Assembly (NCBI GenBank): GCA_964016885.1
Contig: OZ024742.1
Location: 368,218,001-368,282,000 of the forward strand
Direction: 5' to 3'
Source of the DNA: Eledone cirrhosa
Lineage: Eukaryota
DNA length: 64,000 bases
Shown here: piece after piece, positions 11,231-58,556 of the stretch
Layout of the letters: the number at the start of each line of letters is the position of its first letter
Position numbering within the stretch: the first letter of the stretch is position 1
The notes under the pieces: generated by a model
Databases searched by the model: none
What the model was told of the DNA's origin: nothing
What the model saw: only the letters and a program-made list of their open reading frames with translations
Program-made: the position numbers and the translations under genes

Positions 11231-11509
11231 ACACACACATATATACACATATATATACACATATATACACACACATACACGCACATACACACACGCACAC
11301 ACACACACAAACACATACATCCATATATATATGTGTGTGTTTGTGTGTGTGTATGTGCGTGTGTGTATGTGCGTGTTTGTAATATGTCTATGTGTGTGTG
11401 TGTGTGTGTATACACACACGTTGATGTACACACAGATACTCACACATTTACGCACCGACACACACATATACATACACAAACATGCATACGGACATAAACA
11501 CAAACACAT

Positions 11510-22278: not shown

Positions 22279-24564
22279 TCTCGCCACTTTCACCCATCTT
22301 TCATAGAAACGGCTGGGGTGCAGCACCTCGCTCTCCATCCTGATCCTTCTTCCGAAATGATATCGGAAGAAACGGACCAGTTGTTGGCCAGAAAGAAAGG
22401 TGTCTGACCTCAGTCCTTTCAGACGCGTCCACCATACAACCTCGTTTGCCATGGCTATTACGCACAGAAACACCGCCTCTCCTTCGTTTTTGAAGAGGGG
22501 AGGCGGCTTGATCGTTACAATAGACTCGGTGGTCAACCGGATTGGTCCCACCCTTGACAGCAGTTGTTCGACATAGCCCCACAGATCGGCAATGCCCGAG
22601 CAGTGTACCAATGCGTGTGCAACGGTTTCCTCGTCGCACACGCATCTGGGACAGACCTCTTTCGATGGGTCCCTACCCGGGCGCCCGTGTCTGTAGAGCC
22701 TTTCTCGAACGGGCAGAGCCCTTCTGTAGCATTGCCAGGCCAGGGACCTCTGGAAGTTATCCATGGGTCCCGGGCTGAATGTCCTACCGAACAGGTTGGC
22801 CAGTTCGTCTTCCTCCATGCCTAGGGCTTCTCCGAGGGCGTCGTCGCACCTGCTAACCACCAGCCCTCTATAGAATGACGAGGTGGATTCTCCACTGACA
22901 GCCGGGTCCGCCTGCCAGAGAGCCGTGAGCACCTGGGCACACTCGGTGTGCCAGGCGCCCAGTTTTCTCGGTCTTTGCTTGACCCAGGATTGCAGCTCGG
23001 TGAGTGAGACGAGTCTGGGAAAGGCTCGCCTCACAAACGGGGCCCACACCGGTTGACCGGAGAGGAATACCTGAAGGTGCCGTAGCCTTAATGCGTGTTT
23101 ACGTATCATCAACCACGGCATCCCCAGCCCTCCTTTCGAAGGGTGTTGACAGCAGATGGATCTCCTCACCATAGGAGCCCGCTTCTTCCAAAGGAATTGG
23201 AAGAGTGCGCGCTCCATTTTGGCGAGCGTTTCCCTTGGGCAAGGCACCACGGTCAGGCGGTAGTAGATGACGGACGCTATATAAGTGTTCGCCACCTCCG
23301 CCCGACCTTTCAGGGACAGTTTGCACTCGGCCCACTTCTGGGTCAGTGCAAACACCCTGCTCGTCACCTCACCCCGGTTCTTCTCCACCTGGAGGTCTGG
23401 TCCGAACCAGACCCCGAGCAATTTCACCGGGCCCTCCGTCCAGCGCCCGACGACGCCATAGGAGGGCATCGATCTGCCCCTCCACGTGCCGAGTTGCAGA
23501 CCGATCGACTTGTCCCGGTTCACCTTAGCCCCTGTAAACCTTTCGTACTCCTCCGGTAAGGTGCCGATCGCCCCGATTTCCGAGGCCGTCGACACCATTA
23601 CTGTTACGTCATCGGCGTAGGCTGACACCGCTTTCCGCAATCCCGGTTCCAACGGGATCCCCTGCAACAACTCCAACTTCCGCAGCAGTGGCTCTAGAGT
23701 CACTACATACAGAAGGGAGGAGAGAGGGCACCCCTGTCGGATGGACCGCGCGATTTCGAACGGCTCCGAGAGGTAGCCGTTCACCTTGACCCTAGAGCAG
23801 ATGCGGCTGCTGTGCATGGCATTGATCCAGCCCCTGAAAACGGGTCCGAAGCCTGCCGCCGCTAGCACCGCATCCAGGTAACCATGGTCGACCCTATCGA
23901 ATGCCTTAGATTGATCCAAGTTGATCAGGGCCCCACCAAAGCCGGGTTCGTTCCCAACCCTCTCTATGATGTATCGCATGAGGTGGAGGTTATCGTGGAT
24001 GGACCTGGACGGGATAGCACATGTCTGCGCATCTCCCACCAGGTTGCCCACGACAAGCGCCAACCTCTTTGCTAGCACCTTGGCCAAAATCTGTAACTCT
24101 GTATTTAGCAGAGTTATGGGCCTGAAATTATTTATATCGTCCCCCTTGTTCTCGTCCTTCCTCACTAGCGTGACTACGCCCTTGGTCACAGCACAGGTAA
24201 TTCTCACGTTCTGTCGCCAGTTGCAGTAGACCGCCTCGAGGAGTTCGGGGAACAAGTCCGGCATAGCTAGATATAGTTCGTATGGAAGACCATCGAGACC
24301 CGGGGATTTGCGTTTGCCGCATTGGCTCAGCATGTCCTCTATCTCAGCGGCTGAAATCGGCTCCTCGCAGGACTTCGCCTCCCTGTCCGAGAGACGCGGC
24401 AGGTCGTCGAGGTATGGACCGAAGTCCACGTCCTCAACCGGCCCCCCGCCCCTTCCGAACAATTCGGCAAAGTGCTTTTGAAAAGCCTCGCACATCTGCT
24501 TAGATTCAAGGATCACCCGTCCATCCTGGTCTCGCAAAGACCGGATAGTGTATCTGCTCCCTCT

Positions 24565-27239: not shown

Positions 27240-27486
27240 GATAGATAGATAGATAAATTTCTATTTATTTGCCACGAGGGCACAAAAGAAGGGGACATTT
27301 ACACAGTGGGGGAGTTTACATAAATCGAGTAAAGAAAAAGGAATAACAATAATAATATAACAATAAAAAGTCCTCAAAAGGGAGGGGGCGTGTTGGGGAT
27401 TGCACATACCCCCGAAAAGTGTGCAACTCTTTTCGCGGGGGAAGCCCAGAGAGGAGGCGCTCCCCCTTTCCTCTTCACTTCTTCAC

Positions 27487-30400
27487 CTACAGAACAATGT
27501 AGAGAGAAGGCCCATTTACACGGGCCATTCTCGCTTCTTTCACCCACCTTTCATAAAACTGTCTGGGGCCAAGCACTTCTCTCTCCATCCTGATCCTTCT
27601 TCCGAAGTGGTATCGGAAGAAGTAAACCAGGTGATGGCCGGAGAGAAAGTCACCCGACCTCAGACCTTTCAGGCGCGTCCACCACACAACCTCTTTCATC
27701 ATGGCTATTACGCACAGAAAGACCGCCTCTGCTTCATTTCTGAAGGGAGGAGGCGGCTTGATGTTCACCACAGACTCGGCGGTTAATCGAATCGGCGCCA
27801 CACGCGACAGCAGTCGTTCGACGTAGCCCCACAGATCGGCAACGCCCGGGCAGTGTGCCAGTGCGTGCGCAACGGTTTCCTCGTCGCGCACGCATCTGGG
27901 ACAGATCTTTTTCGCGGGATCCCTGCCCAGGCGCCCGTGTCTGTAGAGCTTTTCTCGAACGGGCAGAGCCCCCCGGTAACACTGCCAGGCTAGGGACCTC
28001 TGGAAGTTGTCCATGGGTCCCGGGTCGAAAGTTCTACCGAACAGGCTGGCCAGTTCGTCCTCCTCCATGCCTAGCGACTCTCCAAGGGTGTCGTCGACCT
28101 TGCTAGCCACCAACCCTCTATAGAATGTCGAGGTGGATTCTCCACTGATAGTCGGGTCCGCTTGCCAGATAGCCGTGAGCGCCTGGGCACACTCGGTGTG
28201 CCAGTTGCCCAGTTTTCTCGGTCTTTGCTTCACCCAGGATTGCAGTTCGGTGAGCGAGACGAGCTGTGGGAAGGCTCGCCTCACAAACGGGACCCACACC
28301 GGCTGACCGTTGAGGAATACCTGTAGATGCCGTAGCCTCAATGCGTGCCTACGCATCAACAGCCACGGCATACCCAGCCCTCCTTTCGAAGGGTGCTGGC
28401 AGCAGATGGATCTCCTCACCATGGGAGGCCGCTTCTTCCAGAGGAACTGGAAGAGCATGCGTTCCATGATGGTGAGCTTTTCCTTGGGGCAAGGCACGAC
28501 GGTCAGGCGGTAGTAGATGACGGACGCTATGTAAGCGTTCGTCACCTCCGCCAGACCTTTCAGTGATAGTTTGCACTTGGCCCACTTCTGGGTCAGCGCA
28601 AACACCCTGCTCGTCACCTCGCCCCAATTCTTCTCCACCTGGAGGTCCGGTCCGAACCAGACCCCGAGCAGCTTCACCGGGCCCTCCGTCCACCGCCCGA
28701 TGACACCGTCTAACGGCATCGGTTTGCCCCTCCACGTTCCGAGTTGCAAACCTACTGACTTGTTCTGGTTCATCCTATCCACCGTCAGCCTTTCGTATTC
28801 CTCCAGTAGGGTGGCGATCGCCCCGATTTCCGAGGCGTCCGCCACCATTACTGTTACGTCGTCGGCATAGGCCGAGACCGCTTTGTGCAATCCCGGTTCC
28901 AGGGGTATGCCCCGCAGCAACTCCAACTTCCGCAGCAGTGGCTCGAGAGTCAATACGTACAGAAGGGAGGAGAGGGGGCACCCCTGTCTGATGGACCGGG
29001 TGATTTGAAACGGCTCCGAGAGGTAGCCGTTTACTTTAATCCTAGAGTAGATGTTGCCACTGTGCATGGCAGAAATCCAGCCCCTGAAAACGGGTCCGAA
29101 GCCCGCCGCCGCTAGCACCGCATCCAGGTAACCATGGTCGACCCTATCGAACGCCTTAGATTGATCCAAGTTGATCAGGGCACCACCAAAGCCGGGTTCG
29201 TTGCCAACCCTCTCTATGATGTATCGCATGAGGTGGAGGTTGTCGTGAATGGACCTGGACGGGATAGCGCATGTCTGCGCGTCTCCCACCAAACCACCCA
29301 CCACAAGCGCCAACCTCTTCGCCAACACCTTGGCCAAAATCTGTAACTCTGCATTCAGCAGAGTTATGGGCCTAAAGTTACTTAAGTCGTCCCCCTTGCT
29401 CTCATCCTTCCTCACTAGCGTGACCACGCCCTTGGTCACAGAACAGGGAATTCTCCCGTTCTGTTGCCAGTTGCAATAGACAGCCTCGAGGAGTTCGGAG
29501 AACAAGACCGGCATAGCTAAATAAAGTTCGTATGGTAGACCATCGAGACCCGGAGATTTACGTCTGCTGCATTGGCTGAGCGCTTCCCCGATTTCAGTGG
29601 CTGTGATTGGCCTTTCGCAGCACTCCGCTTCGCCGCTCGAAAGACGCGGTAGACCGTCGAGGTATGGACCGAAGTCCACATCCCCGTCCGGCCCCCCGCC
29701 CCCTCCGAACAGTCGAGCAAAGTGCCTTTGAAAGGCCTCGCACATCCGCTCAGGTTCAAGGATCACCCGTCCATCCTGGTCTCGCAAAGACCGAATGGTG
29801 GATTTAATCCCACTCTTGGCTTCTGTCACGCGGGCCCAGCTAACAGCTTTGGTCACCTCGTTTCCTAAAGCACGTATTTTACTTCGGACAACGCAGCCTT
29901 CGTGCTTCGCGTCAAAGAACTGGCTCAACGCCGTTCTCGCCGCTAACACTCTGGCTACGTCTCCGCTCCTAATCGCCTCTTCTAGTTTATCTGTTAACTC
30001 CCTTTCCTTCCTATTTCTATTCGCCGCTAGTTCCTTACTGTAACCTATCGAACTTACTCTAATCTCTCTCTTTAGAGATACCCACCACCTACTGTTGACG
30101 ATCGCTCCCGTCAACCGCATCTTAACTAAGCTACTAATCTGGTTCCTGTAATCTTTCTTTGCCGGCAAGGACAAGTTCATCTTCCAGTAACTGGGACCCT
30201 GTCTATACGTTCTATCAAGGTTGACCACGCAGGTCACTAATTTGTGATCTGAATAGCCAACCATGATCAATTCTGGACAACTAAATACGTCCCTATCCTT
30301 ACTCCTAACCAAAAACCTATCTAGGTACGATCTAGATTGTCCACTGCGGTTTGCCCAGGTCCAGGTTGGCGCAGTTGGACAATCTAGTCGAAATCTATCG

Positions 30401-30925
30401 ACCAGGTCGAATCGATCGAGTAACCCCTTGAGGCTGCTACACCCCCCTCTATCGGGACATGCCCCTGCATAGTCCCAACGCGCATCTAGGATTCCATTCC
30501 TGTCCCCCACTAAAAGCAGGGAACGCGACGTTCCTAGAAAAGTCTCCAGACGCTGGAAGAAGTCGGCTCTTTCCGCCCCGAAGGGGGCATAAAGACCGAC
30601 CAGTCTGAAAGCCCCGCCTTCACCGCCCCCGACGTCCAGCACCAGTAATCGACCCCCCGGGTCCGAGTGAACAATCTGTACGTCGAGAGCCAGACGTTTA
30701 TCCAGCAGTACGGCAACTCCCCCCCCCCGCCTCCGGGTTGACAGAGAGATGCGTGCATCTCAAAGTCATCGAAGGCGGGCGCCAGCTGTCTCACGCTGCT
30801 GATCCGACTCTCGCAAACAACCATCACATCTATACTTTGTGACCTGAGGTCATTTAGAAGCTTTGCTTTCTTCCAAGCTGAGCCCAGGCCACGCGCGTTC
30901 AAACAGCCAACTCTCAATTGATCTA
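27487..30925 (-). pseudogene. ORF2 of copy C: APE endonuclease + reverse transcriptase + CCHC zinc finger (frameshift at C-run ~30720)
   Basis: ORFs 30534-30917 (LNARGL) and 27487-30642 (YLDRFL, SDH, YADD) join by a one-base shift. The start codon appears mutated (ATA). Confidence 0.85.
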
Positions 30926-32754
30926 TTTTGGTGTTGAAAGTGAAGAAAGAAAAGCACCTACCTCTCCGGGTTGTGTAATTTCCATGGCATCAGGTGTGTT
31001 GGGTGGAGGGATGTTTTGTGGTGGTGTGGGGGTACCCGTGTGTGGTGGGGTTGGGGTATTTGGAGTTGTGCCAGGGAGAGGGGCGGTTATGGGGAAATCT
31101 TTCAAGAGGACGCGATTTAACGGTTTTAAACAGGGGGGGGGGGGCTCACGTCCCGTCTAAATTGTTCTTTTAAGGAACGATAAAGGTCCAGAGGGACCTT
31201 TATCATTTTTAAATGGGTGAAGTTCTCTGTTGAGAAAAAGTTTGGCCCTTCGGTCTGCACCATAGGGTTATTGTTTATTAATTTAACCAGTTTTTTGTTT
31301 TCTTTATTTATATATGTGTATTGCAACGTCTTTTTTTGTGATGCTGTCAATGTTTCGGAGAGGGGAGGCGCAGATTTATTTTTGTTTGTTGAGGGTGGGG
31401 TGTTTTTGATTGGAGTTGGTGTTTGTGTGTGGGTTATTTGTGGTGTGCTGGGTGTGTGTTTTCTTTTTTTTTTTTTAACTTGTCTGAAGGCTTCTCCTTC
31501 TTCTTCAGAAGTTGGGGGAAACTCTTCAGCGCTAGGTGGGAGGGACGTGTTGTGTGGTTGTTTTTTTTGCGGGAGGGGTAGATTTGTTACTGTTTTTTTA
31601 TTATTTGTTTGGAATGGGTTTTGTGGTGGTGATGGTAATGTTTGTGTCGTGCTTGTGGTTGGTGATGGTGGTGGTGATGTTTGTGTTGTGGTTGGTGGTG
31701 GTGATTTTTGTGTCGTGCTTGTGTTTGGTGCTGGTGGTGGTGATGTTTGTGTTGTGTTTGTGGTTGGTGGTGTCTGTATTTTGTTTGCTGTGTGTGGTAT
31801 TAGTGTATTTTTGGAGGTGGGTGGTGTTGGTGTACTGTTTTTGGTGGGTGTGGGCAATAGTCCTTTTTGGGGGATACGTTTCGGGCAGTTAGCCTTAACG
31901 TGTCCCCTTTCCATGCATAAATAGCATGCTGGTCTTCTCCCCTCTACAATTATGTCTATTGGGGTAAGGTCATCCAGCCAGATGCGATCCGGGATTTGTG
32001 CTATTCTTTCGGGCCTCATTTGGACTAGTATGTCGAGGCCCATTCCCAGGAACGCATCTCCAGTTGCCTGCCCCATTGACAGCATTGTGTCTTCGCCCAT
32101 GTCTATGAAGCCAGCAATAGCCCACCAGAAGTCCATTGTGGGCAGCATTGTTTTTACTTTTACTCTCTGTGTTCTTCTACCCATGTAGGAGGGATAGAAG
32201 CTGTATGTTGTCGATGAGAGTGGGCTTAGGGAAAGCTTCTCCGCCGTTTCCTTGTCTTTTGTTAGGACCGAAATGCTGCCATAGAGTCGGTCCTTTCGTA
32301 TGAAGAGAATATTCTTCATATAGTCTTTTAGGACCAACTCTATTTCCATTTGGCTGGGCTGTGCTGGCTGTCTTGTCTGGTTCAGTATAGTTCTGAAGAG
32401 AACTGTGCTCTCTGTTCTGGCTTTCTTGAATTCTGGGGGTGAGTTAATGGAAAACATTCCGTTCTCCCCCAAGACTATTTGTTTTTTTGCTTCGGCCAGT
32501 TTTTCTCTGGCGGCAGTTAAGTCAATTGGTGTGTATATTATGGATTGTTTTGTTTTCTGGGCGAAAGTTGCCCTGTTGTTATTTGTATTATTTTCTGTTT
32601 GTTTGTTTTCCGTTTGCTCATTTTCCTTAACATTTGTTTTTTCATTTTCCTTGTTTGTTTCGTTGTCTAATTTTGTTGTAATTATTTTTTGTTCTTCAGA
32701 CTTGGGGGGCGTGGCAGAGCTAATGGCAGACATGTCTGCCATCTTTTCCGCCAT
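30923..32754 (-). pseudogene. ORF1 of copy C (gag-like, CX2CX4HX4C; frameshift at G-run ~31135)
   Basis: CYLCMERGHVKANC. Homologous to copy D ORF1, and the C-terminus continues in ORF 30923-31105. Confidence 0.85.
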
Positions 32755-33226
32755 GCTGCCAAGAAAGAAATTTTTCGGCAAAAAAATAGATATTTATTTT
32801 ACCCCCTAAAAAGGGGGTAAATGCAAAAATGTTTCCCTAAATAACAGGGGTTAGTGTTCCAAATGTGTTGCACTGAAAAATTTATCCGGTACTTACTATA
32901 GTGAGGGTAAATCCTGATGGAATAACGGAGCCGATGTGAAGCGTGTCTTACTCTATCAAGATAGGTTTCTTTTATTTGCCACTAGGGCATCAAAAGTGGG
33001 ACAAGTACAAAGGGGGAGTTTACACAAAAAGGCGTCCTCAATAAGGAGGAGGCAATAACAAAATATAAAAATAAAATAAGATATAACAAAAAATAAAATT
33101 TTTAACAAAATCCTCAATAGAGAGGAGGCGCCTTGGGGGGTCGCACACACCCCCGAAAAAAGTGTGCAACCCTTCTCCTCAGGAGCACAGAGAAGGGGTG
33201 CTCCCTTGGTCTTTCATCTTCCTCAC

Positions 33227-36200
33227 CTATAGTCTGATGTAGAGTGAAGGCCCATTCACACGGGCCATTCTCGCCACTTTCACCCATCTTTCATAGAAAC
33301 GGCTGGGGTGCAGCACCTCTCTCTCCATCCTGATCCTTCTTCCGAAATGATAACGGAAGAAACGGACCAGTTGTTGGCCAGAGAGAAAGGTGCCTGACCT
33401 CAGTCCTTTCAGACGCGTCCACCATACAACCTCTTTCGCCATGGCTATTACGCACAGAAACACCGCCTCTGCTTCATCTTTGAAGGGGGGAGGCGGCTTG
33501 ATCATTACAATAGACTCGGTGGTCAACCGGATCGGTCCCACCCTTGACAGCAGTTGTTCGACATAGCCCCACAGATCGGCTACGCCCGAGCAGTGTACCA
33601 ATGCGTGTGCAACGGTTTCCTCGTCGCACACGCATCTGGGACAGATCTTTTTGGCGGGGTCCCTACCCGGGCGCCCGTGTCTGTAGAGCCTTTCTCGAAC
33701 GGGTAAAGCCCCTCGGTAGCACTGCCAGGCCAGGGACTTCTGGAAGTTGTCCATAGGTCCCGGGCTGAATGTCCTACCGAACAGGCTGGCCAGTTCGTCC
33801 TCCTCCATGTCTAGGGCTTCTCCGAGGGCGTCGTCGCACCTGCTGCGTACCAGCCCTCTATAGAATGTTGCGGTGGAGTCTCCACTGATAACCGGATCCG
33901 CCTGCCAGAGGGCGGTGAGCGCCTGGGCACACTCATTGTGCCAGGCGCCCAGTTTTCTCGGTCTTTGCTTGACCCAGGATTGCAGCTCGGTGAGTGAGAC
34001 GAGTCTGGGAAAGGTTCGTCTCACAAACGAGGCCCACACCGGTTGTCCGGTGAGGAATACGTAGAGGTGCCGTAGCCTTAATGCGTGTTTACGCATCATT
34101 AGCCACGGCATCCCCAGCCCTCCTTTCGAAGGGTGTTGACAGCAGATGGATCTCCTCACCATAGGAGCCCGCCTCTTCCAAAGGAATTGGAAGAGCGCGC
34201 GCTCCATCTTGGTGAGGGTTTCCCTTGGGCAGGGCACTACGGTCAGGCGGTAGTAGATGACGGACGCTATGTAGGTGTTCGCCACCTCCGCCCGACCTTT
34301 CAGGGATAGTTTGCAACTGGCCCACTTCTGGGTCAGTGCAAACACCCTGTTCGTAACCTCCGCCCAGTTTTTCTCCACCTGGAGGTCCGGTCCGAACCAG
34401 ACCCCGAGCAACTTCACCGGGCCCTCCGTCCAGCGTCCGACGACGCCATCGGAGGGCATCGGTCTGCCCCTCCACGTGCCGAGTTGCAAACCGATCGACT
34501 TGTCCCGGTTCAGCTTAGCCCCTGTGAAATTTTCGTACTCCTCCAGTAAGGTGCCGACCGCCTCGATTTCGGAGGCCGTCGACACCATTACTGTCACGTC
34601 ATCGGCGTAGGCCGACACCGCTTTCCGCAATCCCGGTTCCAAAGGGATGCCCTGCAACAACTCCAACTTCCGCAGTAGTGGCTCGAGAGTCAACACATAC
34701 AGAAGGGAGGAGAGAGGGCACCCTTGTCGGATGGACCGCGCGATTTTGAACGGCTCCGAGAGGTAGCCGTTCACCTTGACCCTAGAGCAGATGCGGCTGC
34801 TGTGCATAGCAGTGATCCAGCCCCTGAAAACGGGTCCGAAGCCTGCCGCCGCTAGCACCGCATCCAGGTAACCATGGTCGACCCTATCGAACGCCTTAGA
34901 TTGATCCAAGTTGATCAGAGCCCCACCAAAGCCGGGTTCGTTCCCAACCCTCTCTATGATGTATCGCATGAGGTGGAGGTTGTCATGGATGGACCTGGAC
35001 GGGATAGCGCATGTCTGCGCATCTCCCACCAGGTTGCCCACGATAAGCGCCAACCTCTTTGCTAGCACCTTGGCCAAAATCTGTAACTCTGTATTTAGCA
35101 GAGTTATGGGCCTGAAGTTACTTATTTCGTCCCCCTTGTTCTCGTCCTTCCTCACTAGCGTGACTACGCCCTTGGTCACAGTACAGGGAATTCTCCCGTT
35201 CTGTTGCCAGTTGCAGTAGACCGCCTCGAGGAGATCGGGGAACAAGTCCGGCATAGCTAGATATAATTCGTAAGGAAGACCATCGAGACCCGGGGATTTG
35301 CGTTTGCCGCATTGGCTCAGCACGTCCTCTATCTCAGCGGCCGAAATCGGCTCCTCGCAGGACTTCGCCTCCCTGTCCGAGAGGCGCGGCAGGCCGTCGA
35401 GGTATGGACCGAAGTCCACGTTCCCAACCGGCTCCCCGCCCTTCCCGAACAGTCGGGCAAAGTGCCTTTGAAAGGCGTCACACATCTGCTTAGGCTCAAG
35501 AATCGCCCGTCCATCCAGGTCTCGCAAAGACCGGATGGTGGATTTAGTTCCACTGTTGGCCTCTGTCACGCGGGCCCAGCTAACAGCTTTGGTCCCCTCG
35601 TTCCCTAGAGCACGTATTTTACTTCGGACAACGCAGCCTTCGTGCTTCGCGTCAAAAAACTGGCTCAAAGCCGTTCTCGACGCTAGCACTCTGGCCACGT
35701 CGCCGCTTCTAATTGCCTCTTCTACTCTATCTATTAGCTCCCTTTCCTTCCTATTCCTATCCGCAGCTAGAACCTTACTAAATTCTATCGAGACTACTCT
35801 AATCTCTCTCTTTAGAGATACCCACCACCTGCTGTTGACGATCGCTCCAGTCAACCGTTCCTTAACTAACGTACTAATCCGATTCCTGTAGGCTCTACTT
35901 GCCGGCAAGGACAAGTTGAGCTTCCAGTAACCGGGGCCCTGTCTATGAGTTCTGTCAAGGTTGACCATGCAGGTCACTAATTTGTGGTCTGAATAGCCAA
36001 CCATGCGCATTTTTGGACAACTTAAAAAGTCCTTATCCTTAATTCTAACTAAGAACCTATCTAGGTACGACCTAGATGATCCGCTACGATTTGCCCAAGT
36101 CCAGGTTGGCGCAGTCGGAAAATCTAGTCGATATCTATCGGCCAGGTCAAATCGACCGATTAACCCTTTGAGGCTATTACACCCCTCTCTATCGGGGCAG

Positions 36201-36664
36201 GCCCCTACGTAGTCCCAGCGTGCATCTAGGATACCATTCCAGTCCCCCACTAATAGCAAGGAGCGGGACGTCCCTAGAAAAGTCTCCAGACGATGGAAGA
36301 AGTCCGGCCGCATTGACCCGAAAGGGCCGTAGGCGGCTACCAACCTAAACGCTCCGCCTTTACTACTGCCAAGGTCCAGAACCACTAGTCGACCCTCCGG
36401 GTCCAAATGTACCATCTGTGTTGCGAGACCCAGATGTTTTTGCAGCAGAACGACAACTCCACCCCCACCTCCGGGCTGACAGAGAGATGCGTGCATCTCA
36501 AAGTCATCAAAGGTGGGGGCCAGCTGTCGCACGTTGCTGATCCGGGCCTCGCAAATAACCATCACATCTATACGTTGTGACCTGAGGTCATTTAGAAGCA
36601 TTGCTTGCTTCCAAGTTGAGCCCAGGCCACGCGCATTTAAACAGCCTACTCTTAGCATAGCCAT
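33227..36664 (-). CDS. ORF2 of copy D: AP-endonuclease + reverse transcriptase + C-terminal CCHC zinc finger (~1145 aa)
   Basis: ATG at 36664 (MAMLRVGCLNARGL). EN motifs GDWN, YLDRF and SDH; RT motifs LDQSKAFDRV, QGCPLS and YADD; zinc finger CPRCVCDEETVAHALVHC. Confidence 0.95.
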   Translation of the reverse strand: MAMLRVGCLNARGLGSTWKQAMLLNDLRSQRIDVMVICEARISNVRQLAPTFDDFEMHASLCQPGGGGGVVVLLQKHLGLATQMVHLDPEGRLVVLDLGSSKGGAFRLVAAYGPFGSMRPDFFHRLETFLGTSRSLLLVGDWNGILDARWDYVGACPDREGCNSLKGLIGRFDLADRYRLDFPTAPTWTWANRSGSSRSYLDRFLVRIKDKDFLSCPKMRMVGYSDHKLVTCMVNLDRTHRQGPGYWKLNLSLPASRAYRNRISTLVKERLTGAIVNSRWWVSLKREIRVVSIEFSKVLAADRNRKERELIDRVEEAIRSGDVARVLASRTALSQFFDAKHEGCVVRSKIRALGNEGTKAVSWARVTEANSGTKSTIRSLRDLDGRAILEPKQMCDAFQRHFARLFGKGGEPVGNVDFGPYLDGLPRLSDREAKSCEEPISAAEIEDVLSQCGKRKSPGLDGLPYELYLAMPDLFPDLLEAVYCNWQQNGRIPCTVTKGVVTLVRKDENKGDEISNFRPITLLNTELQILAKVLAKRLALIVGNLVGDAQTCAIPSRSIHDNLHLMRYIIERVGNEPGFGGALINLDQSKAFDRVDHGYLDAVLAAAGFGPVFRGWITAMHSSRICSRVKVNGYLSEPFKIARSIRQGCPLSSLLYVLTLEPLLRKLELLQGIPLEPGLRKAVSAYADDVTVMVSTASEIEAVGTLLEEYENFTGAKLNRDKSIGLQLGTWRGRPMPSDGVVGRWTEGPVKLLGVWFGPDLQVEKNWAEVTNRVFALTQKWASCKLSLKGRAEVANTYIASVIYYRLTVVPCPRETLTKMERALFQFLWKRRAPMVRRSICCQHPSKGGLGMPWLMMRKHALRLRHLYVFLTGQPVWASFVRRTFPRLVSLTELQSWVKQRPRKLGAWHNECAQALTALWQADPVISGDSTATFYRGLVRSRCDDALGEALDMEEDELASLFGRTFSPGPMDNFQKSLAWQCYRGALPVRERLYRHGRPGRDPAKKICPRCVCDEETVAHALVHCSGVADLWGYVEQLLSRVGPIRLTTESIVMIKPPPPFKDEAEAVFLCVIAMAKEVVWWTRLKGLRSGTFLSGQQLVRFFRYHFGRRIRMEREVLHPSRFYERWVKVARMARVNGPSLYIRL

Positions 36665-36688
36665 GTTGGTGGTGAAGAGAAAAGGCAC

Positions 36689-38479
36689 TTACCTCTCTGC
36701 GTCCCGGGTATCGGGCTGCACAATTTCCATTAGGGTGGGGGATGGGTTGTTGGGTGGGGTGGTGGTTTGTGGAAGTGTGGGGGCATCAGTGTGTTGTGTG
36801 GTTGGGGAGCTTGGAGTTGTGTGGGTGTTTGGGGAGGGGGTGGGATAGTTTTTTAGGAGGACGCGGTTAATGGGCCCGACGCAGGGGGGACCCACGTCCT
36901 CTTTAAAATTGTTTTTTAAAGTTTTATAGGTGTCCTGTGGGGCCTTAATCATTTTGAGGTGGGGGAAATCCCCTGCCTGGGTGAAGTTAGGCCCTTGTGT
37001 TTTTATTAGATTGTTGTTGTACACAATGTTTAACAGTTTTTTGTTTCTTGTATTTATGTATGTGTATGCATGTTTTTGTTTTTGTGTGGTGTTTTTTGTT
37101 TGCTGTTGTTGTGAGCTCTTTTGTGTTGGTGTCAGTGTTATGTTTTGGGGAGGGTTTTTTTTCATTTGTGTGTCTGAGGTGTGTTTTCTTTTTTTTCTTT
37201 TGATTGTGTGGAAGTGCTCCTCCTCGTCTGACGACGAACTAGGGTCATCTTCCGCGTTGGAGGGGAGGGGTATATTTTCGGGTTGTGTTTGCGGTACGGG
37301 TGTTTTGGAAATTGTTTTTGTTTTTTGAGTGGAGGGGATGGGTTGGACATTGTTTTGTTTTGGTTTGAGCTGTGGTGGTTGTTTTTGTAGTGGTAGTTGT
37401 GGTGATTGTGTTGGTTGTGCAGTTGTTGGTGGTGTAGGCAGGATTGGGGTTTTCTTATTAAGTTGGGGACAGACAGCCCTCAGGTGACCTCTGGTTCCGC
37501 AGAGGTAACACGAGGGCCGTCTACCCTCAACGGTAATGTTGATGAAGGTTAGATCATCCAGTATGACGCGTTCAGGGATCTGGGCGATCCTTTCGGGCCT
37601 CATTTGAACTACAAGTTCGAGGCTCGTTCCACTGAACGCGTCACCCGATGCCTTTCCCATGGACACCAGCATGTCATCCTCCAGGTCCAGAAAACCTGTC
37701 AAAACCCACCATATGTCCATAATCGGCAGGATGGTGTGGATTTTTATTTTTTGTGTTCTTCTACCCATGTACGTAGGGTAGAAGGTGTATGCGGTGGATG
37801 TGATTGGTTTGATGGACAGTTTCACTGCTGTGTCCCTGTCCTTCATGAGAATGGATAGACTCCCGTAGAGTCTATCCTTCTGAATGAAGGTGATGTCCTT
37901 CATGACGTCTTTTAAAACCAGCTCTATCTCGCTCTGTGATGGTTGAGCTGGTTTTTTACTTTTGTTCGAGATTGTCCTAAACATGACCGTGTTTAGGAGT
38001 CTCTGGCTTTTTAGTTCCGGGGGGGAATGGATTGTGAATGAACCATTTTCCCCGTACACTATATATTTTTTCGCATCCGCCAGTAGCTCCTTCGCTTTTG
38101 TTATATCTACTGGCAGATAGTCGAGGGTTTTCCTTGTCGTCTCGGCGAAGGAGAAATTTTGTTTGTTTGTGTTGTTGTTGTCGTTGGTGGTGTTGTTGTT
38201 ATCATTGTTGTTGTTGTCACCGTTATTGGTCTTGTTGTTGTTATTGTTATTGTTATTGGTGTTGTTTTCGTCCGTCGCATTGTTGTTGTTGTTGCTGTTG
38301 CTGCTGGTTCTTTGGGTTGTTGCCATGGCAACGTCAAGTTGTCGGTTAACAGGTGGAGAGAATTCTTCCTCTGGCTGACCTATCTTCTTGACCTCTGCTA
38401 CTGTGACAGTGGCAGGGGGAAGCTGTAAGTTCATCTTCCCCTTTCCTCCTTCGAATTTTGGTGAAGAAGCTTCGGCCAT
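36689..38479 (-). CDS. ORF1 of copy D: nucleic-acid-binding gag-like protein (596 aa)
   Basis: CYLCGTRGHLRAVC zinc knuckle, Asn-rich and Pro/Thr/Gln-rich low-complexity tracts, and a basic KRKKRK patch. Sits directly upstream of ORF2. Confidence 0.92.
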   Translation of the reverse strand: MAEASSPKFEGGKGKMNLQLPPATVTVAEVKKIGQPEEEFSPPVNRQLDVAMATTQRTSSNSNNNNNATDENNTNNNNNNNNKTNNGDNNNNDNNNTTNDNNNTNKQNFSFAETTRKTLDYLPVDITKAKELLADAKKYIVYGENGSFTIHSPPELKSQRLLNTVMFRTISNKSKKPAQPSQSEIELVLKDVMKDITFIQKDRLYGSLSILMKDRDTAVKLSIKPITSTAYTFYPTYMGRRTQKIKIHTILPIMDIWWVLTGFLDLEDDMLVSMGKASGDAFSGTSLELVVQMRPERIAQIPERVILDDLTFINITVEGRRPSCYLCGTRGHLRAVCPQLNKKTPILPTPPTTAQPTQSPQLPLQKQPPQLKPKQNNVQPIPSTQKTKTISKTPVPQTQPENIPLPSNAEDDPSSSSDEEEHFHTIKRKKRKHTSDTQMKKNPPQNITLTPTQKSSQQQQTKNTTQKQKHAYTYINTRNKKLLNIVYNNNLIKTQGPNFTQAGDFPHLKMIKAPQDTYKTLKNNFKEDVGPPCVGPINRVLLKNYPTPSPNTHTTPSSPTTQHTDAPTLPQTTTPPNNPSPTLMEIVQPDTRDAER

Positions 38480-38718
38480 TTAAAAAAATATTGACTTTTC
38501 AACAAGAAAAAACTTTTTTTAACTATTTCGCCTAAAGGCGTAGAATATTTTGAGAGACTGACCAGATCAAAGTTTGACCTGGCAGTCCCTCTACAAAATG
38601 GTACAAAAATTAAAGTTATCAGACAAGAATTTCTATAGAAATTTAAACAGAACTTACTCAGCAAGTTATACGCGTGTGTCCATCCCAAAATAGATGATAG
38701 ATAGATAGATAGATAGAT

Positions 38719-41700
38719 TTCTTTATTTGCTACAAGGGCGCACAAGAAAAGAGACAAATACAAAGACACATGCCTGGAATTTTACATACAGTCGTGTAAA
38801 AAAAAATATAAAACAAACAATTATAATAATCGAAATCCCCAATAGGGGGGCAACGCCACAAATGGGTTGTTTAATACCCCGTCGATAGAACAACCCTCAA
38901 CTTCAGGAGCGTGTTGTTCAAATGCTCTTTTCTTTCTTTTGCTCGCTTCTTTAACCTACAGGCTTATATACAGAGAAGGCCCAATCACTCGGGCCATTTT
39001 TGCCATATTCACCCACCTTTCAGTAAATTTACTGGGGTGCAGTGCCTCTCTCTCCACTCTGATTCTTCTTCGAAAGTGATACTTAAAGAAGGGAATCTAT
39101 TGTTGTCCGGAGAGAAAGGCATCTGTCCTCAGTCTTCTCAATCTCGTCCACCATATAACCTCTTTCACCATAGCCACCGTACAGAGGAAAACCGCCTCTC
39201 TTTCGTTTTTGAAAAAGGCTGGCGGTTTGATCGTTATTATGGACTTGGCAGTCAACTGGATGTGTCCCATACGCGACAGCAGTTGTTCTGCATAGTTCCA
39301 CAGGTCAGTTACGCCCGGGCAGTGTACAATTGCGTGCAGGACTGTTTCAATGTCCTGCGCGCATCTTGGACACGTCCTCTTGGAAGGATCCCTGCCGGGG
39401 CGTCCGTGCCTGTAGATCTTGTCACGAACCGGTAGAGCTCCTTGGTAGCACTGCCAGGCCAGGGACCTCTGGAAGTTGTCCATAGGTCCCGGGCTGAAGG
39501 TCCTACCAAACAGACTGGTGAGTTCATCGTCGTCGGCGCCCAGAGTCTCTCCGAGCACGTCGTCGCCCTTGTAACGTACAATCCCTCTATAGAATGTCGA
39601 AGTGGAGTTTCCAGAGGAGTGTGAGTGCCTGAGCGCATTCAATGTGCCAGGCGCCCATCGTTTTCGGTCTTTTCTTGACCCAGGACTGCAGCTACGTCAG
39701 CGAGACGAGTTGTGCCCACACCGGTTAGGGGTCGGTGAGGAATACCTGGAGATGCCGCAGCCTCAGCGCATGTTTGCGCATCATCAGCCACGGCATTCCC
39801 AGCCCTCCGCTGGAAGGGTGCTGTCAGCAGACGTGTCTCCTCACCAGCGGAGCCTGCTTCTTCCACAAAAACTGGAAGAGCATGCGTTCCATCTTGGCGA
39901 GATGTTCACGGGGACAAGGCACGACAGTCAAGCGGTAGTAGATGACGGACGCTATGAAAGTGTTCGCCACCTCCGCTCGACCTTTCAAGGAGAGTTTGCA
40001 CTCTGCCCACTTCTGGGTGAGTGCAAACACCTTGGCCGTCACCTCGTTCCAGTTTTTCTCCACCTGGAGGTCTGGACCGAACCAGACCGCGAGCAATTTC
40101 ACCAGTCCGTCCGTCCGTCCAGCGTCCAACGACGCTGTCGGACGTCATCGGTTTGCCTCTCCAGGTACCGAGTTGCAAACCGACAGACTTGTCTGGGTTT
40201 AGTTTTGCTCTCGTCAGCGTTTCGTATTCTTTCAGTAAGTTGCCGATCACCCCGATTTCCGAGGTGCTCGACACCATTACCGTCACGTCCTCGGCATAGG
40301 CCGACGCCGCTTTTTACAGTCCCGGTTCTAGAGGGATGTCCTGCAACAGCTCCAATTTCCGCAGTAGTGGCTCTAGAGTCAATACATACAGAATGGAGGA
40401 GAGAGAGGGCACCCCTGTCGAATGGAACGCGTGATTGCGAACGGCTCCGATAGGTAGCCGTTCACCTTGACTGCCGAGCAGATGCTGGTGTGCATCGCCT
40501 CGATCCAGCCTCTGAAAACGGGACCGAAATCGGCCGCCTTGAGAATTGCTTCCAAGTATCGATGGTCGACCCTATCGAATGCCTTAGACTGATCCAAATT
40601 GATCAGAGCCCCACCGAAGCCGGGTTTAATACCCACCCTTTCTATGATGTATCGCATGTGGTGGAGGTTGTCGTGTATGGACCTTGTCGGGATTGCACAC
40701 GTTTGCGCTTTCCCTACCAGGTTATCGACGTCAAGCGCCAACCTCGTCGCTAGCACCTTGACCAAAATCTTTTACTCTGTGTTGAGCAGGGTTATGGGCC
40801 TGAAGTTGTTAATTTCGTCCTCCTTGTTCTCGTCTTTCCTAATCAGCGTTACTACGCCCTTGCCTGCAGAACTAGGAATTCTCCCGTTCTGCTGCCAATT
40901 GCAGTAGACGGCTTCGAGGACGCCAGAGAACAAGTCCGGCATGCCTATGTAAAACTCATAGGATAGACCATCTAGACCGGGTGACTTGCATTTCCCGCAG
41001 CGGCCCAGAGCGCCCCGTATCTCACTGTCCGTGATCGGTCTTTCGCAGAACTCGGCGTCCGTGTTCGAGAGACGCGGCAGGCCGTCGAGGTATGAACTAA
41101 AGTCCATTGCCCGGTTCGGCTCACCGTCGTTCTGCTCAAACAGTCGCGCAAAGTGCTGCTGAAAGGCTGCGCACATTTGCTTGGGGTCAAGTAGCACGCG
41201 TCCGTTTTGGTCTTTCATAGACCGAATCGTGGACTTGTTGCCACTTTTTGCCTCCGCCACTCGGGCCCAGCTGACAGCTTTCGCTCCTTCGTTTCCTAGA
41301 GCACGTGTTTTGCTTCTGACCATGCAGCCTTCGTGATTCGCATCGAAGAACTGGTCCAGTGCCGTTCTCGACGCTAACACTCTAGCCGCGTTGCCACTTC
41401 TAAGTGCCTCCTCTGCCTTGGCTACTAGTTCTCTTTCTATTTTGTTTTTCTCTAAGGCTAACTCTCTGCTAAACCCTATCGATTCTATTCTAATTGCATT
41501 CTTGAGAGAGTACCACCATTTATTGTTGACGATGGTTCCCGTTAGCTGTTGCTTGACTAGTCTACTTATCCGTTCAATGTAAGCTTTACGTGCCTGCAAC
41601 GACACGTTCAGCTTCCAGTATCCGGGTCCTTGTCTTGTATTCTATCACGGTTGACTAAGCAGACGACTAATTTGTGATCTGAATAGGCAACCAAATGCAT

Positions 41701-44500
41701 TCGTGGACAGCTTAACATCTCCTTGTCCCTTTCTCTAATGAAGAACCTATCTAAATACGATCTAGATGTCCAGCTGCGGTTTACCCACGTCCACTGTGGT
41801 GCAGTCGGGAAATCCAGTCGATACCTATCGGCCAGTTGGAATTGGCCGATTAAAGTTTTGAGGCTGTTGCACCCCGCTCTACTGGGACATGCTCCCACAT
41901 AGTCCCATCGTGCATCTAGGATACCATTCCAGTCCCCCACTAAAAGTAAGGAACGAGACGTTCCCAGAAAAGACTCTAGACGCTTAAAGAAGTCTGGCCG
42001 TGATTGCGATTGCCCGGTCGGGGCATAAACGGCCACCAGTCTGAAGGCTCCACCTCCAATACTGTTCACGTCTAGGACTACCAGTCTACCCTCCGGGTCC
42101 AAGAGTACTTGTTGTACTTCGACGTCCAGGTTCTTCCGAAAGATGACAGCCACTCCACCTCCACCCCCTGGCTGACAGAGAGATTCGTAGATCTCAAAGT
42201 CGTCGAAGATGGGGGTTAGTTGCTACCTGTTGTGGATCCTGGACTCGGTGATGGCTAGCACATCCATACGGTGTGACCTAAGGTCGTTTAAAAGTTGGCC
42301 CTATTTCCAGGGCATCCCTAGGCCACGCACATTTACGGTTCCAACTCGTAAACTAGCCATGTTGGTGAAGAAGAGTTGAAGAAAAAGGACGAAAGGTGCA
42401 CTTACCTTTTCGTTTCCTGGGGATCGTGTGGTTCAATCTCCATTTGGGTGCTGGATGGGGTGTTGGGTTGGGTGGGGAAACATTTTAACAGGACGCGGTT
42501 GATGGGTTTTTGGCAGGGGTTGCCCACGTCCTGTGAACATTTATTTTTCAGGTCATTATAGGTTTCCATAGAAACCCTTATAAGTTTAAGGTGTGGAGAC
42601 GGTTCTGCCTTGACGAAAGTTTTGCCCTCCGTCTCCACCTTGGGGTTTTGGGAGATGACCTCCATCAAACTCTTGTTGTTTGTGTTGATGTATGCGTATT
42701 GTTGTTTGTGTTTTTGTTGTGTTGTTTTAGTTTGTTGTTCGTCCGGGAGTTTTCTTTTTATGGTGGGTGCTTGTGTTTGGGGTGGTGTTGGTGTTGGTTT
42801 TGCTGGTAGGGGGATGTTTGACTGTGATGTTGTTTGTGTTTTTGTTTGTGTCTGTGGTTGTGTGTTGGTGTTGGTGATTGGAGTTTTGGGGGTTTTGTGG
42901 TGTCTCTTTTTTTGTTTTTTTTAGATTTCCGCGGCTCTCTCTCTTCTTCACTTAAAGAAGGAGAAGCAGCCTCATCTGTCGATGAATAATCATCGTCAGG
43001 AGTGTGGGGTAGGGGTGTGTTGTGTGGTGGTAGTGTTTCGGTGTGTGTGTTTGTGGTAGTGTTTGATGGAGTGGGATGGGGTGGGGTAGTGTTCTTCAGG
43101 GGTGTTGTCTCTGTTTTTTCTGTTGTTGTTGGTTGAGTGGCTGTTTGTTTTGGTGTGGTTGCTCGTTTCGTCTGTTGTTGTAATTGTGGTGCTGGTGGTT
43201 GTTTTGGTGTTGGTAATACTGTTTTTTAATGATGTTGTTGTGATGTGTTTGTGAAGGACAGGGGGCTTTTAGGTGTACTGTGCTACCACAGCGAAAGCAA
43301 TTAAATTTTCGTCCTTCTACCGAAATATTTATTTTGTTGTTGTCGTCGATGACGACTTTTTCGGGTATTTTGGAGATTCTCTCCGGCCTCATTTGCAACA
43401 GAATCTCCAAATCAGTACCCGCCCACCTTTGTCGAATAGAGTTTCGTATTGAAAGAATCATATCAGTTTCTGGCTCTACGAAGCCAGCCAAGATCCACCA
43501 GATGTTAATGTTTGGTGGTATATTTTTAATTTTTATTTTTTGTATCCTTTTTCCCATGTATGTAGGGAAAAAGGTGAATGCTTTTGACACCATTAGTGTC
43601 ACAGAATGTTTTGGGACGAGTGCCTTGCTTTTAAACAGTACGGAAACGCTTCCGTACGGAAACACTTTCGATATTTGCTAGAATTTCCTTCAGGGTATCT
43701 TCTATATCTCCTTCACTAACAAATATCGGCTTTCTCGTGATATTGGATACAGTACTAAAGGTCACTGTCCTCCGAACTGTGTCTTCTTTTATTTCGAGGG
43801 GTGAGTTAATTCTAAACCCACCCTTGTCTTCGAAAGTTACAAATTTTCTTCTTTGCTGGAGCATATCTCTTGCATTGGAGATGTCAAGATTTATAAAATC
43901 TTGTTTTTTGTTCACTGTTTCAGCAAAATACATTTTTTTTGTGTGGTGTTGCTGTTGTTGTTGTTGTTGTTTTTCTTGTCGCTGTTAGCCTCGGTGTTGG
44001 AAATGTCAGTTCCTTGACGAGGTGAAACATTATGTGTAGATGTATCTGTGGAGTTGTTGATGTTGTTTTTTTTCATGTGTATGTATATTAATGGGTTTAA
44101 TTCCTGTGATTTCATTTTTCTCCGCTTCCACGGTAGAAATTGTACAATTTTCATGTGGTAATATTTTTTCCCTTTTGTTGACAGTCGTATCTATGGCGAC
44201 GTCTATAGTAGCAGAAGCAGATATAACGTTAATATCTGCTTCTTTACCTCTCTTTTCTCTGTCGACGTTCTCTAGCGTTCTTTTCGTGTTATTCATGTTT
44301 TATAGTTGGCAAAATTTGATATTTTAAAATAATTTTTAAATTAAATTTTCGCCCCTAAAGGGGAGAAAAATGGGATTACCACCCAGCTGACAATTCAACT
44401 TGGGGGTTAATCTACAAAATAATATGTTTTTTCAAACAAATTGTTCTGTTTTTCGTATATAAATTTAAAGAAAATCTTACCGGCGATGTTCCACGCGTCA
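38719..44500 (-). mobile_element. Tx1-clade copy E, full length but decayed (divergent family)
   Basis: ORF2 fragments 38956-42360 (EN, RT, zf) and ORF1 fragments 42402-44296 (CFRCGSTVHLKAPC), with many frameshifts. GATA tracts on both sides. Confidence 0.92.
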
Positions 44501-44556
44501 GACAGATAGAGAGATAGATAGATAGATAAATAGATAGATAGATAGATAGATAGATA

Positions 44557-46168
44557 AGTTTCTTTTATTTGCCACTAGGGCATCAAAAGTGGGACAAGTA
44601 CAAAGGGGGGAGTTTACACAAAAAGGCGTCCTCAATAAGGAGGAGGCAATAACAAAATATAAAAATAAAATAAGATATAACAAAAAATAAAATTTTTAAC
44701 AAAATCCTCAATAGAGAGGAGGCGCCTTGGGGGGTCGCACACACCCCCGAAAAAGGTGTGCAACCCTTCTCCTCAGGAGCACAGAGAAGGGGTGCTCCCT
44801 TGGTCTTTCATCTTCCTCACCTATAGTCTGATGTAGAGTGAAGGCCCATTCACACGGGCCATTCTCGCCACTTTCACCCATCTTTCATAGAAACGGCTGG
44901 GGTGCAGCACCTCTCTCTCCATCCTGATCCTTCTTCCGAAATGATATCGGAAGAAACGGACCAGTTGTTGGCCAGAGAGAAAGGTGCCCGACCTCAGTCC
45001 TTTCAGACGCGTCCACCATACAACCTCTTTCGCCATGGCTATTACGCACAGAAACACCGCCTCTGTTTCATCTTTGAAGGGGGGAGGCGGCTTGATCATT
45101 ACAATAGACTCGGTGGTCAACCGGATCGGTCCCACCCTTGACAGCAGTTGTTCGACATAGCCCCACAGATCGGCTACGCCCGAGCAGTGTACCAATGCGT
45201 GTGCAACGGTTTCCTCGTCGCACACGCATCTGGGACAGATCTTTTTGGCGGGGTCCCTACCCGGGCGCCCGTGTCTGTAGAGCCTTTCTCGAACGGGTAA
45301 AGCCCCTCGGTAGCACTGCCAGGCCAGGGACTTCTGGAAGTTGTCCATAGGTCCCGGGCTGAATGTCCTACCGAACAGGCTGGCCAGTTCGTCCTCCTCC
45401 ATGTCTAGGGCTTCTCCGAGGGCGTCGTCGCACCTGCTGCGCACCAGCCCTCTATAGAATGTTGCGGTGGAGTCTCCACTGATAACCAGATCCGCCTGCC
45501 AGAGGGCGGTGAGCGCCTGGGCACACTCAGTGTGCCAGGCGCCCAGTTTTCTCGGTCTTTGCTTGACCCAGGATTGCAGCTCGGTGAGTGAGACGAGTCT
45601 GGGAAAGGTTCGTCTCACAAACGAGGCCCACACCGGTTGTCCGGTGAGGAATACGTAGAGGTGCCGTAGCCTTAATGCGTGTTTACGCATCATTAGCCAC
45701 GGCATCCCCAGCCCTCCTTTCGAAGGGTGTTGACAGCAGATGGATCTCCTCACCATAGGAGCCCGCCTCTTCCAAAGGAATTGGAAGAGCGCGCGCTCCA
45801 TCTTGGTGAGGGTTTCCCTTGGGCAGGGCACTACGGTCAGGCGGTAGTAGATGACGGACGCTATGTAGGTGTTCGCCACCTCCGCCCGACCTTTCAGGGA
45901 TAGTTTGCAACTGGCCCACTTCTGGGTCAGTGCAAACACCCTGTTCGTAACCTCCGCCCAGTTTTTCTCCACCTGGAGGTCCGGTCCGAACCAGACCCCG
46001 AGCAACTTCACCGGGCCCTCCGTCCAGCGTCCGACGACGCTATCGGAGGGCATCGGTCTGCCCCTCCACGTGCCGAGTTGCAAACCGATCGACTTGTCCC
46101 GGTTCAGCTTAGCCCCTGTGAACTTTTCGTACTCCTCCAGTAAGGTGCCGACCGCCTCGATTTCGGAG
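44557..46168 (-). mobile_element. Tx1-clade copy F, 5'-truncated, nearly identical to the 3' part of D
   Basis: The 3' UTR and ORF2 C-terminus match D almost base for base. Between GATA tracts 44501-44556 and 46168-46215. Confidence 0.93.
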
Positions 46169-55699: not shown

Positions 55700-56580
55700 G
55701 ACAGTCTGACTGCACAAATGGACTTGAACTGATTCGAAGTATGGCTCCTCACTCTCTTCGCATCCGTACAATTCTGAGATGTGTGTACAAAGTGAGATCA
55801 GTCTGTGTCTGGCTAGACTCCTATGACATTTCAATCTTGGAAGGAAATTGGTCAATGTTTGATGATCTAGTAAATCCCCAAAACATGTCCAACAATCTGC
55901 TAAGCCGTTTGAATGAGATAGTGGAAAATGAAAATGAGAGCTTGCATTCAGAATCCTCAATCATGGCCAATTTTGCATCCATTATCAAACATTTTAATAA
56001 AGAGATTCAAAAAATGAAAATCAACTCCTGTGACATTTGCAAACAACGAGAATTAGATGCTAAACTCAAAGTCTGGGAGGATTGGAGCCCTTTGACAAAT
56101 CCCTATCTCCTGGAAACCATTCAACAAAACTACTCTCTGCCATGTACGATTTGCTCTACATGTAGAAATAGTCTTGTCAAAAAGTCGATACCATCATTGG
56201 CTTCAATCAATGGCCTAGAAGTGGTCAAAATTCCAAATGTGTTGTCAAAGTTGAACATGTATGAGCAGATTTTGATCCAAATGGCCAATTGCTTCATCAA
56301 TGTCATTAAATTGTCACCCTATCGTTTCAAAGGTGCACCATCACATCTAGTAGCTGCTATTAAAGGAATAGCAACTCACATGCCACTACCAGTAGAAAAC
56401 ACAATCAATCATGTAATGAAAAAACTTCCAAAATGATGCATTTGAAATAATTGTTGATAGTCTTCCAACTAAAAGGGACACAATTTGGCGATCGCTAGTG
56501 AATATGCAAAATGTCTTTGATGCCTTGGAGTGGCTGAAAAACAACAATGACATTTACAATGACATTTTGATAGACAGAAC
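55648..56580 (+). pseudogene. Cys-rich / DUF6570-like segment of the Helitron polyprotein
   Basis: CDIC...CSTC...PSLASINGL...LNMYEQILI...KGIATHMPLP, then after a frameshift SLPTK...WRSLVNMQNVFDALEWLKNNN. Confidence 0.75.
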
Positions 56581-58546: not shown

Positions 58547-58556
58547 TGCAGTTGAG

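Follow-up and report, generated by a model that had tools for sequence, protein, structure and literature searches.

LINE retrotransposons are thought to avoid splicing, since a spliced copy loses its promoter. The 64,000-nt stretch of Eledone cirrhosa DNA analysed here (the window; contig OZ024742.1) raises the question of what a strong splice donor is doing just inside the 5′ end of several full-length LINEs. An earlier note on this DNA had read a conserved putative intron into the 5′ leaders of three such elements, here called C, D and E, with the acceptor lying in a small hairpin that might gate splicing. Its positions, lengths and motifs are correct on the minus strand: donor to acceptor runs from 32896 to 32806 in C (91 nt), from 38657 to 38532 in D (126 nt) and from 44480 to 44355 in E (126 nt). 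The ORF1 start codons, said to lie some 50–60 nt beyond the acceptors, are at 32754, 38479 and 44295 and follow by 51, 52 and 59 nt, respectively. To these features we add acceptor-like AGs nearer the donor (38591 in D, 44412 and 44387 in E, 32837 in C) and a longer upstream hairpin (Table 1).

Table 1. Features of the LINE array, in window positions
Feature	Position	Strand	Copies or other support
(TCTA)n/(TAGA)n run between E and D	38690..38718	.	same repeat between other array units
Element D, full-length two-ORF L1/Tx1-like LINE	32978..38690	-	396 intact leaders genome-wide
D putative exon 1, ~31 nt, directly after (TCTA)n run	38658..38688	-	5′ end sharply common to copies
D site-1 donor TGA/GTAAGT	38652..38657	-	28/30 copies
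D inner acceptor-like site TTTTGTAG, 67-nt candidate intron	38591..38598	-	AG 30/30 copies
D long hairpin	38552..38591	-	fold z -6.4 for two-hairpin region; covariation across families
D outer acceptor-like AG at 38532, 126-nt candidate intron, in small hairpin	38529..38540	-	AG 30/30 copies
D ORF1 with CCHC knuckle	38479-36689	-	
Second strong donor AGAG/GTAAGT over D ORF1 stop codon	36687..36692	-	
D ORF2: endonuclease, RT, zf-RVT	36664-33227	-	
Acceptor-like pyrimidine tract and TAG/G over D ORF2 stop codon	33227..33250	-	
Element C, full-length, second family	27271..32958	-	463 intact leaders
C site-2 donor ATA/GTAAGT	32891..32896	-	29/30 copies
C branch-point-like CTAAC (32854-32850), reduced long hairpin, middle AG 32837 (60 nt)	32835..32854	-	AG 29/30
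C small hairpin with outer acceptor-like AG at 32806 (91 nt)	32798..32821	-	AG 30/30
Element E, full-length but broken (frameshifts, stops), older third family	38729..44503	-	246 intact leaders
E site-1 donor CCG/GTAAGA	44475..44480	-	GT 28/30, GTAAG 23/30 copies
E inner acceptor-like TTTTGTAG, AG end 44412 (69 nt), long hairpin, middle AG 44387 (94 nt)	44372..44419	-	each AG 28/30; hairpin ends approximate
E small hairpin with outer acceptor-like AG at 44355 (126 nt)	44345..44368	-	AG 26/30; ends approximate

An array of LINEs in TCTA repeats

The elements are non-LTR retrotransposons on the minus strand, arrayed head to tail at 22277–48770 with (TCTA)n runs between the units. C, D and E are members of young, TCTA-targeting L1/Tx1-like families, that of E being older. 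First, the ORF2 of D has the domains expected of an L1/Tx1-type element (Exo_endo_phos, RVT_1 and zf-RVT, the last below its cut-off), and its closest solved structure is human L1 ORF2p (E 1e-47; R2 only 6e-20). Second, the ORF1 translations of C, D and E carry a CCHC knuckle (C-x2-C-x4-H-x4-C), and 5′-truncated units occur in the window and at fetched loci, a separate ORF1 and truncated copies both being L1/Tx1 traits. Third, a TCTA/TATC-type or TA-rich repeat, the mark of microsatellite targeting, stands immediately 5′ of nearly all full-length copies viewed. The Tx1 label rests on this anatomy and repeat target, not on a reverse-transcriptase tree with named Tx1 elements, and the protein relatives searched included no named Tx1 reference among the matches. 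Penelope-like elements have a single ORF with RT and GIY-YIG; the elements here have two ORFs and an APE endonuclease, and thus may work like Penelope yet do not belong to that group. The families of C, D and E are large in the 3.0-Gb genome (663, 1065 and 633 first-look candidates), with copy-to-copy likeness over the queried stretch of 99–100% in D and C and 92–95% in E.

The units of the array end at 27271, 32978, 38729, 44571, 46230 and 48770, where a common AATAAA-GAAA tail runs straight into TCTA repeats without poly(A). One 5′-truncated unit and the 3′ end of D are 99.3% identical (32959–34574 and 44552–46168); the array is thus still growing, as several families insert separately into one and the same repeat. 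Family C has ATA in place of the ORF2 ATG of other families (near 30930, and at loci L177, L198 and L228; 4 of 4 copies), though it is young and abundant. The window also holds a 27-bp AT-rich satellite (about 194 copies, 16938–22279) that replaces the 3′ end of LINE unit A, a 10-bp CA-rich satellite (about 995 copies, 678–11239) that yields many spurious minus-strand ORFs, and on the plus strand a Helitron Rep-helicase split into several ORFs (54008–60537).

Eight families with one leader layout

An endonuclease search of the genome gave only family-D copies, and other families were therefore drawn from array neighbours: 60 regions, each about 10 kb long and adjacent to another copy, yielded five further leader types, E2, B, H1, H2 and K. 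D, C and E were sampled at 30 copies each and H2 and K at 25 each, whereas H1, B and E2 stand on 6, 2 and 1 copies. The ORF2 5′ ends are 69–94% identical between families.

All eight families have the same layout, in the order repeat, short exon-1-like segment, donor, AU-rich stretch, long hairpin, small hairpin, AU-rich stretch and ORF1. The leaders, which the earlier note had taken to be poorly alignable outside the splice motifs, do align, at 54% mean column identity. They are thus homologous, and the three elements C, D and E cannot be counted as independent of one another.

In the endonuclease tree D groups with K (support 87/85) and B with H1 (84/90), neither node being starred. Leader similarity pairs the families differently, H1 with H2 and K with C, and this disagreement makes exchange of 5′ leaders between families likely. 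Two side observations likewise suggest exchange of the 5′ region between lineages: B and H1 have ORF2 starts that are 94% identical and different leaders, and A-type ORF2 copies, 94% identical to D, bear the D leader (L199–L214).

A donor that moves but is retained

A strong donor lies 25–80 nt from the 5′ end in every family, with GTRAG, the consensus of a U2-type 5′ splice site, in 8 of 8 and GTRAGT in 7 of 8. It occupies site 1 in D, E, E2 and B and site 2, about 35 nt further on, in C, H1, H2 and K, and is kept in 22 of 25 copies of K and 23 of 25 of H2. Site 1 reads AGAAGT in H1 and H2, the site 2 of which is GTGAGT or GTAAGT. Since sister families (D and K, B and H1) use different sites, either the donor changed position or families swapped leaders, but in every case one donor was retained; from these alignments we take its position to have moved at least once. 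U1 pairing tolerates A or G at donor position +3, and it is between these that the H2 subfamilies alternate (GTAAGT and GTGAGT).

In dinucleotide shuffles of the first 200 nt (5,000 for each of the eight families), GTRAGT appeared within the first 95 nt in 0.8–9% of shuffles per family, and GTRAG in 4.6–19%. The sense strand of element D has just two GTRAGT in 5.7 kb, one at +32 and the other at the ORF1 stop. The leader donor thus exceeds chance and looks selected. That the motifs are functionless chance features handed down from one ancestor we consider highly improbable: the leaders are homologous, AG is a common dinucleotide and the per-family chance of GTRAG is 5–19%, but such an account leaves unexplained a donor at two positions in leaders about 54% identical, the rarity of GTRAGT elsewhere on the sense strand and hairpins with paired changes.

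It is also improbable, though less so, that the hexamer belongs to a DNA promoter element, a transcription-factor site merely resembling a splice site, with the hairpins serving translation or RNP assembly. The donor does sit where the internal promoter of a LINE is expected, spliced copies are lacking (below), and the human L1 donor has been argued, in the available part of the report, to lie inside a RUNX3 site (PMC5860796). Against this, the motif shifts by about 35 nt between families into unrelated flanks, alternates between GTAAGT and GTGAGT, and recurs 2 kb inside the element at the ORF1 stop.

Candidate acceptors differ between families

No acceptor is common to all eight families. Three candidate AGs, which we call inner, middle and outer, are present in 5, 7 and 7 families, respectively, each missing somewhere, and a branch-point-like YTRAY in 6 of 8. 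The inner AG (TTTTGTAG), 67–69 nt from site 1, is found in D, E, E2, B and H2 (in H2 too near the donor for use) and is absent from C, H1 and K. The middle AG, at the tip of the long hairpin, occurs in all families but D, 92–94 nt from site 1 or 60–62 nt from site 2, and all four site-2 families have YTRAC 15–21 nt before it. The outer AG, 126–130 nt or 91–92 nt from the donor, occurs in all families but K, where the small-hairpin loop reads TTTT and only 1 of 25 copies has the AG.

The intron motifs described as conserved in the earlier note therefore fare unequally. Its donor is universal, and its hairpin-loop acceptor is kept in 7 of 8 families and is never the first usable AG downstream of the donor. 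The note had held that the idea would fall if other full-length members lacked the motifs; K partly does so, having lost the outer AG, yet donor and hairpins are present in all eight families.

Some features of the acceptors may indicate an actual intron. The closest to the idea of the earlier note is an efficiently spliced, Penelope-like leader intron, in which spliced RNA, probably also ORF2-less, would be the main message for ORF1p, while unspliced RNA would make ORF2p and be copied, with the hairpins setting the ratio; we regard it as the close rival of the reading favoured below, possible but on balance doubtful. In its favour, acceptor conservation tracks donor position: ATTTTGTAG has been kept by all 4 of the site-1 families, whereas 3 of the 4 site-2 families, in which it would fall too near the donor, have lost it. 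The loop of the small hairpin is variable (TTTA, TACA, TTCA, CCTA, CTCA, ATCA), yet in 7 of 8 families its last two bases before G are Y-A. Six of the 8 families allow a length of 91–94 nt, in agreement with the 89 and 93 nt of the two short host introns that we read; being 2 among about 33 exon gaps, these introns are too few to exclude introns of 60–69 nt, and so very small a sample only slightly favours the 91–94-nt pairings. Against an efficiently spliced intron are the want of a universal acceptor and an implied length that varies by family (60–69, 91–94 or 126–130 nt). Moreover, structure alone could keep the middle AG, and likewise the G of the outer AG, as both are paired within stems.

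Hairpins over the candidate acceptors

In 7 of 8 families the region of the two hairpins folds better than its shuffles, with z from -2.0 to -6.4; E2 gives z -1.3. RNAfold agrees with the earlier note in predicting a small hairpin at the outer AG of C, D and E, with the AG at the loop and 3′ arm (in D, CGCC-TTTA-GGCG), and this hairpin is conserved with paired changes. Its stem variants include CGCCCC/GGGGCG, ACCCC/GGGGT and, in K, a G-U pair; such paired changes point to a role at the RNA level. As the hairpin is kept in K, where the AG is lost, that role would be apart from presenting the outer AG.

In the long stem, 8 of 12 pairs are changed on both sides, and 77.6% of cells are paired against 63% in shuffled and 27–49% in slid controls, figures inflated by derivation of the tested structure from the same sequences. 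RNAalifold on an automatic alignment recovered only 3 pairs, because loop lengths differ, and an Rfam search at gathering thresholds over 32600–44700 gave no matches. The tract of the inner AG is unpaired in the fold and so is not well hidden. Gating of splicing by a hairpin is plausible on these predicted folds, and the long upstream hairpin is an equally good candidate for it as the small one.

Splice-like signals around ORF2

At nearly every ORF1–ORF2 junction viewed, a strong donor lies on the ORF1 stop (30956–30961 and 42400–42405 in the window, in addition to that of D), and in the families inspected the ORF2 stop lies within a pyrimidine-tract TAG/G. In C and D, joining this donor to this acceptor would rebuild the last ORF1 codon and its stop. 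That signals flank ORF2 in this way speaks for the real-intron reading, as do its precedents, the Penelope leader intron (PMC2377424) and the subgenomic gag RNA of a Copia element (PMC5580714), each as given in the available text.

A retrovirus-like scheme can be drawn from these signals, which we think unlikely: the host spliceosome would excise a leader intron gated by structure, together with all of ORF2, to give an ORF1-only message, and only unspliced RNA would give ORF2p and be copied, so that no spliced copy would reach the genome and the donor would move without ever being lost.

Genomic copies derive from unspliced RNA

Several searches bear on whether spliced RNA has been copied. First, exact junction patterns run genome-wide found 0 joined leaders against 1,422 intact ones (396 in D, 463 in C, 246 in E and 317 in H2). 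The eight probes covered two acceptors in each of these four families, in E the inner and the outer; an exact pattern overlooks copies that have mutated, joined and intact alike. Pooled over the 1,422, the rule of three bounds the spliced fraction at about 0.2%.

Second, among 140 copies chosen from the ORF1 side, none had precise intron loss, the comparison that the earlier note had proposed, so that genomic copies of the SpIRE type were not found. Deletions in single copies (L082, L092, L221, L227 and L235) were considered as splice products and rejected, as none joins the donor to an AG. ORF2-less joined copies of D numbered 0 genome-wide, a count that has no separate control.

Third, in Logan contigs of run X1, the smallest assembly, one contig is unspliced through the C acceptor (32709–32924) and one through the D acceptor (38330–38687); the run type is unlabelled and contigs drop variants, so these count neither way. 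No leader joint was among the joints listed (15 of 157 and 15 of 22) when contigs of X1, X2, X5 and X6, and again those of X1 and X2, were compared with C and D.

The data support derivation of genomic copies from unspliced RNA. In human L1, the proteins act in cis, and spliced copies make up about 2% of full-length elements although most of the RNA is unspliced, as reported in the available part of the source (PMC5860796). Taken with the 0 joined leaders against 1,422 intact, we infer that the RNA making ORF2p is almost never leader-spliced. The earlier note had argued that retention of the intron implies selective use of unspliced RNA: the copies do come from unspliced RNA, while selective use presupposes that spliced RNA exists. 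The absence of joined leaders and of ORF2-less copies weighs against the real-intron reading, although ORF2-less RNA, with no reverse transcriptase in cis, would explain why spliced copies are absent.

Proposed U1 docking on mostly unspliced RNA

The reading that we favour, held tentatively and at a little under an even chance, is that the leader donor is a docking site for U1 snRNP on LINE RNA that mostly stays unspliced, with the hairpins pairing up the candidate acceptors. U1 near the transcript start would make RNA from the internal promoter resemble a normal first exon, and would protect it against premature termination across the A-rich ORF1 (38–42% A across ORF1 regions, with 2–5 internal AATAAA per element). 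The donor at the ORF1 stop would renew this protection ahead of ORF2. With the candidate AGs paired up in hairpins, splicing would be inefficient, and full-length, promoter-bearing RNA would be the template that ORF2p copies in cis; a minor spliced form is possible, perhaps an ORF1-only message. In mammalian cells, according to the available text of one study, Restrictor is blocked by a 5′ splice site close to the promoter even when no splicing occurs, and splicing adds protection (PMC12211998).

Among the observations that argue for U1 docking are a donor in 8 of 8 families at two positions, its A/G alternation at +3, acceptors that are each absent somewhere, the paired changes in the long hairpin, the A-rich ORF1 with its AATAAA, and 0 joined forms. 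Others argue against it. Several acceptor features look selected (the ATTTTGTAG pattern, YTRAC and the Y-A loop end), and pairing site 2 with the outer AG (91–92 nt) or site 1 with the middle AG (92–94 nt) matches the host introns of 89 and 93 nt. The unpaired tract of the inner AG, the 3 pairs from RNAalifold and the reliance of E2, B and H1 on 1, 2 and 6 copies also tell against it, and the Restrictor support comes from mammalian cells. The U1-docking and real-intron readings differ mainly in the amount of splicing, and the retained donor more probably serves to recruit U1 for protection of the transcript than to have the segment cut out routinely.

Three further ideas were dropped. Evasion of HUSH fits poorly with protection that scales with intron length and does not need a 5′ splice site, as stated in the available part of the report (PMC8770142). 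Removal of upstream ATGs cannot be the common purpose, as B and E2 have these in the intron, whereas D, H1 and H2 have them in exon 1. Trans-splicing was set aside since a cis donor is always present.

Comparison with known systems

The literature searched, with most subscription papers and Repbase reports outside it, yielded no leader intron or donor in a Tx1-type LINE; a study of Octopus vulgaris repeats describes 13 recently active L1-Tx1 families, and its main text, as far as available, lacks the strings ‘intron’ and ‘splic’ (PMC13282606). The comparisons below draw on the available portions of the cited papers. In their insertion within simple repeats, the elements resemble Kibi, Koshi and crocodilian Tx1, which are L1/Tx1-type LINEs. 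The targets there are (TC)n, (TTC)n, (TTCC)n and (TTTC)n rather than (TCTA)n, and those portions mention no leader intron (PMC4494074).

Human L1, known for its SpIREs, likewise belongs to the L1 type, has a conserved donor close to its 5′ end and yields RNA that is mostly unspliced, the latter being what we propose here (PMC5860796). It differs in having about 2% spliced copies, against 0 versus 1,422 in our families, and a donor at a RUNX3 site, whereas the donor here shifts position and hairpins cover the acceptors (PMC5860796). In the Ty1/Copia element EVD of Arabidopsis, U1 both enables a short gag RNA and protects the unspliced full-length RNA (PMC5580714). EVD shares with our elements a donor near the end of the structural-protein gene, but has LTRs; its splicing has been tested, and its intron is internal and not in the leader (PMC5580714).

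The nearest likeness in the leader is to Penelope and Chlamys-3_cRei, which also have a short intron-like segment just past the 5′ end, in the region of an internal promoter, and retain it in their copies (PMC2377424, PMC8557442). In Penelope of Drosophila virilis this is a 75-bp leader intron, 46 bp after the start, that is mostly spliced, is needed for expression and is retained in copies (PMC2377424, PMC8557442). Those elements are of the GIY-YIG type with one ORF; RT-PCR or long reads demonstrated their splicing, which most Penelope transcripts undergo (PMC2377424, PMC8557442). Ours are APE-type LINEs with two ORFs, no fixed acceptor and a putative intron. A clade that keeps a donor under apparent selection without spliced copies may show how an intronless retroelement borrows U1 for its own transcription, or separates message from template. 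It also offers a natural case for the puzzle posed by Penelope, the retention of an intron, in an element whose relatives act in cis.
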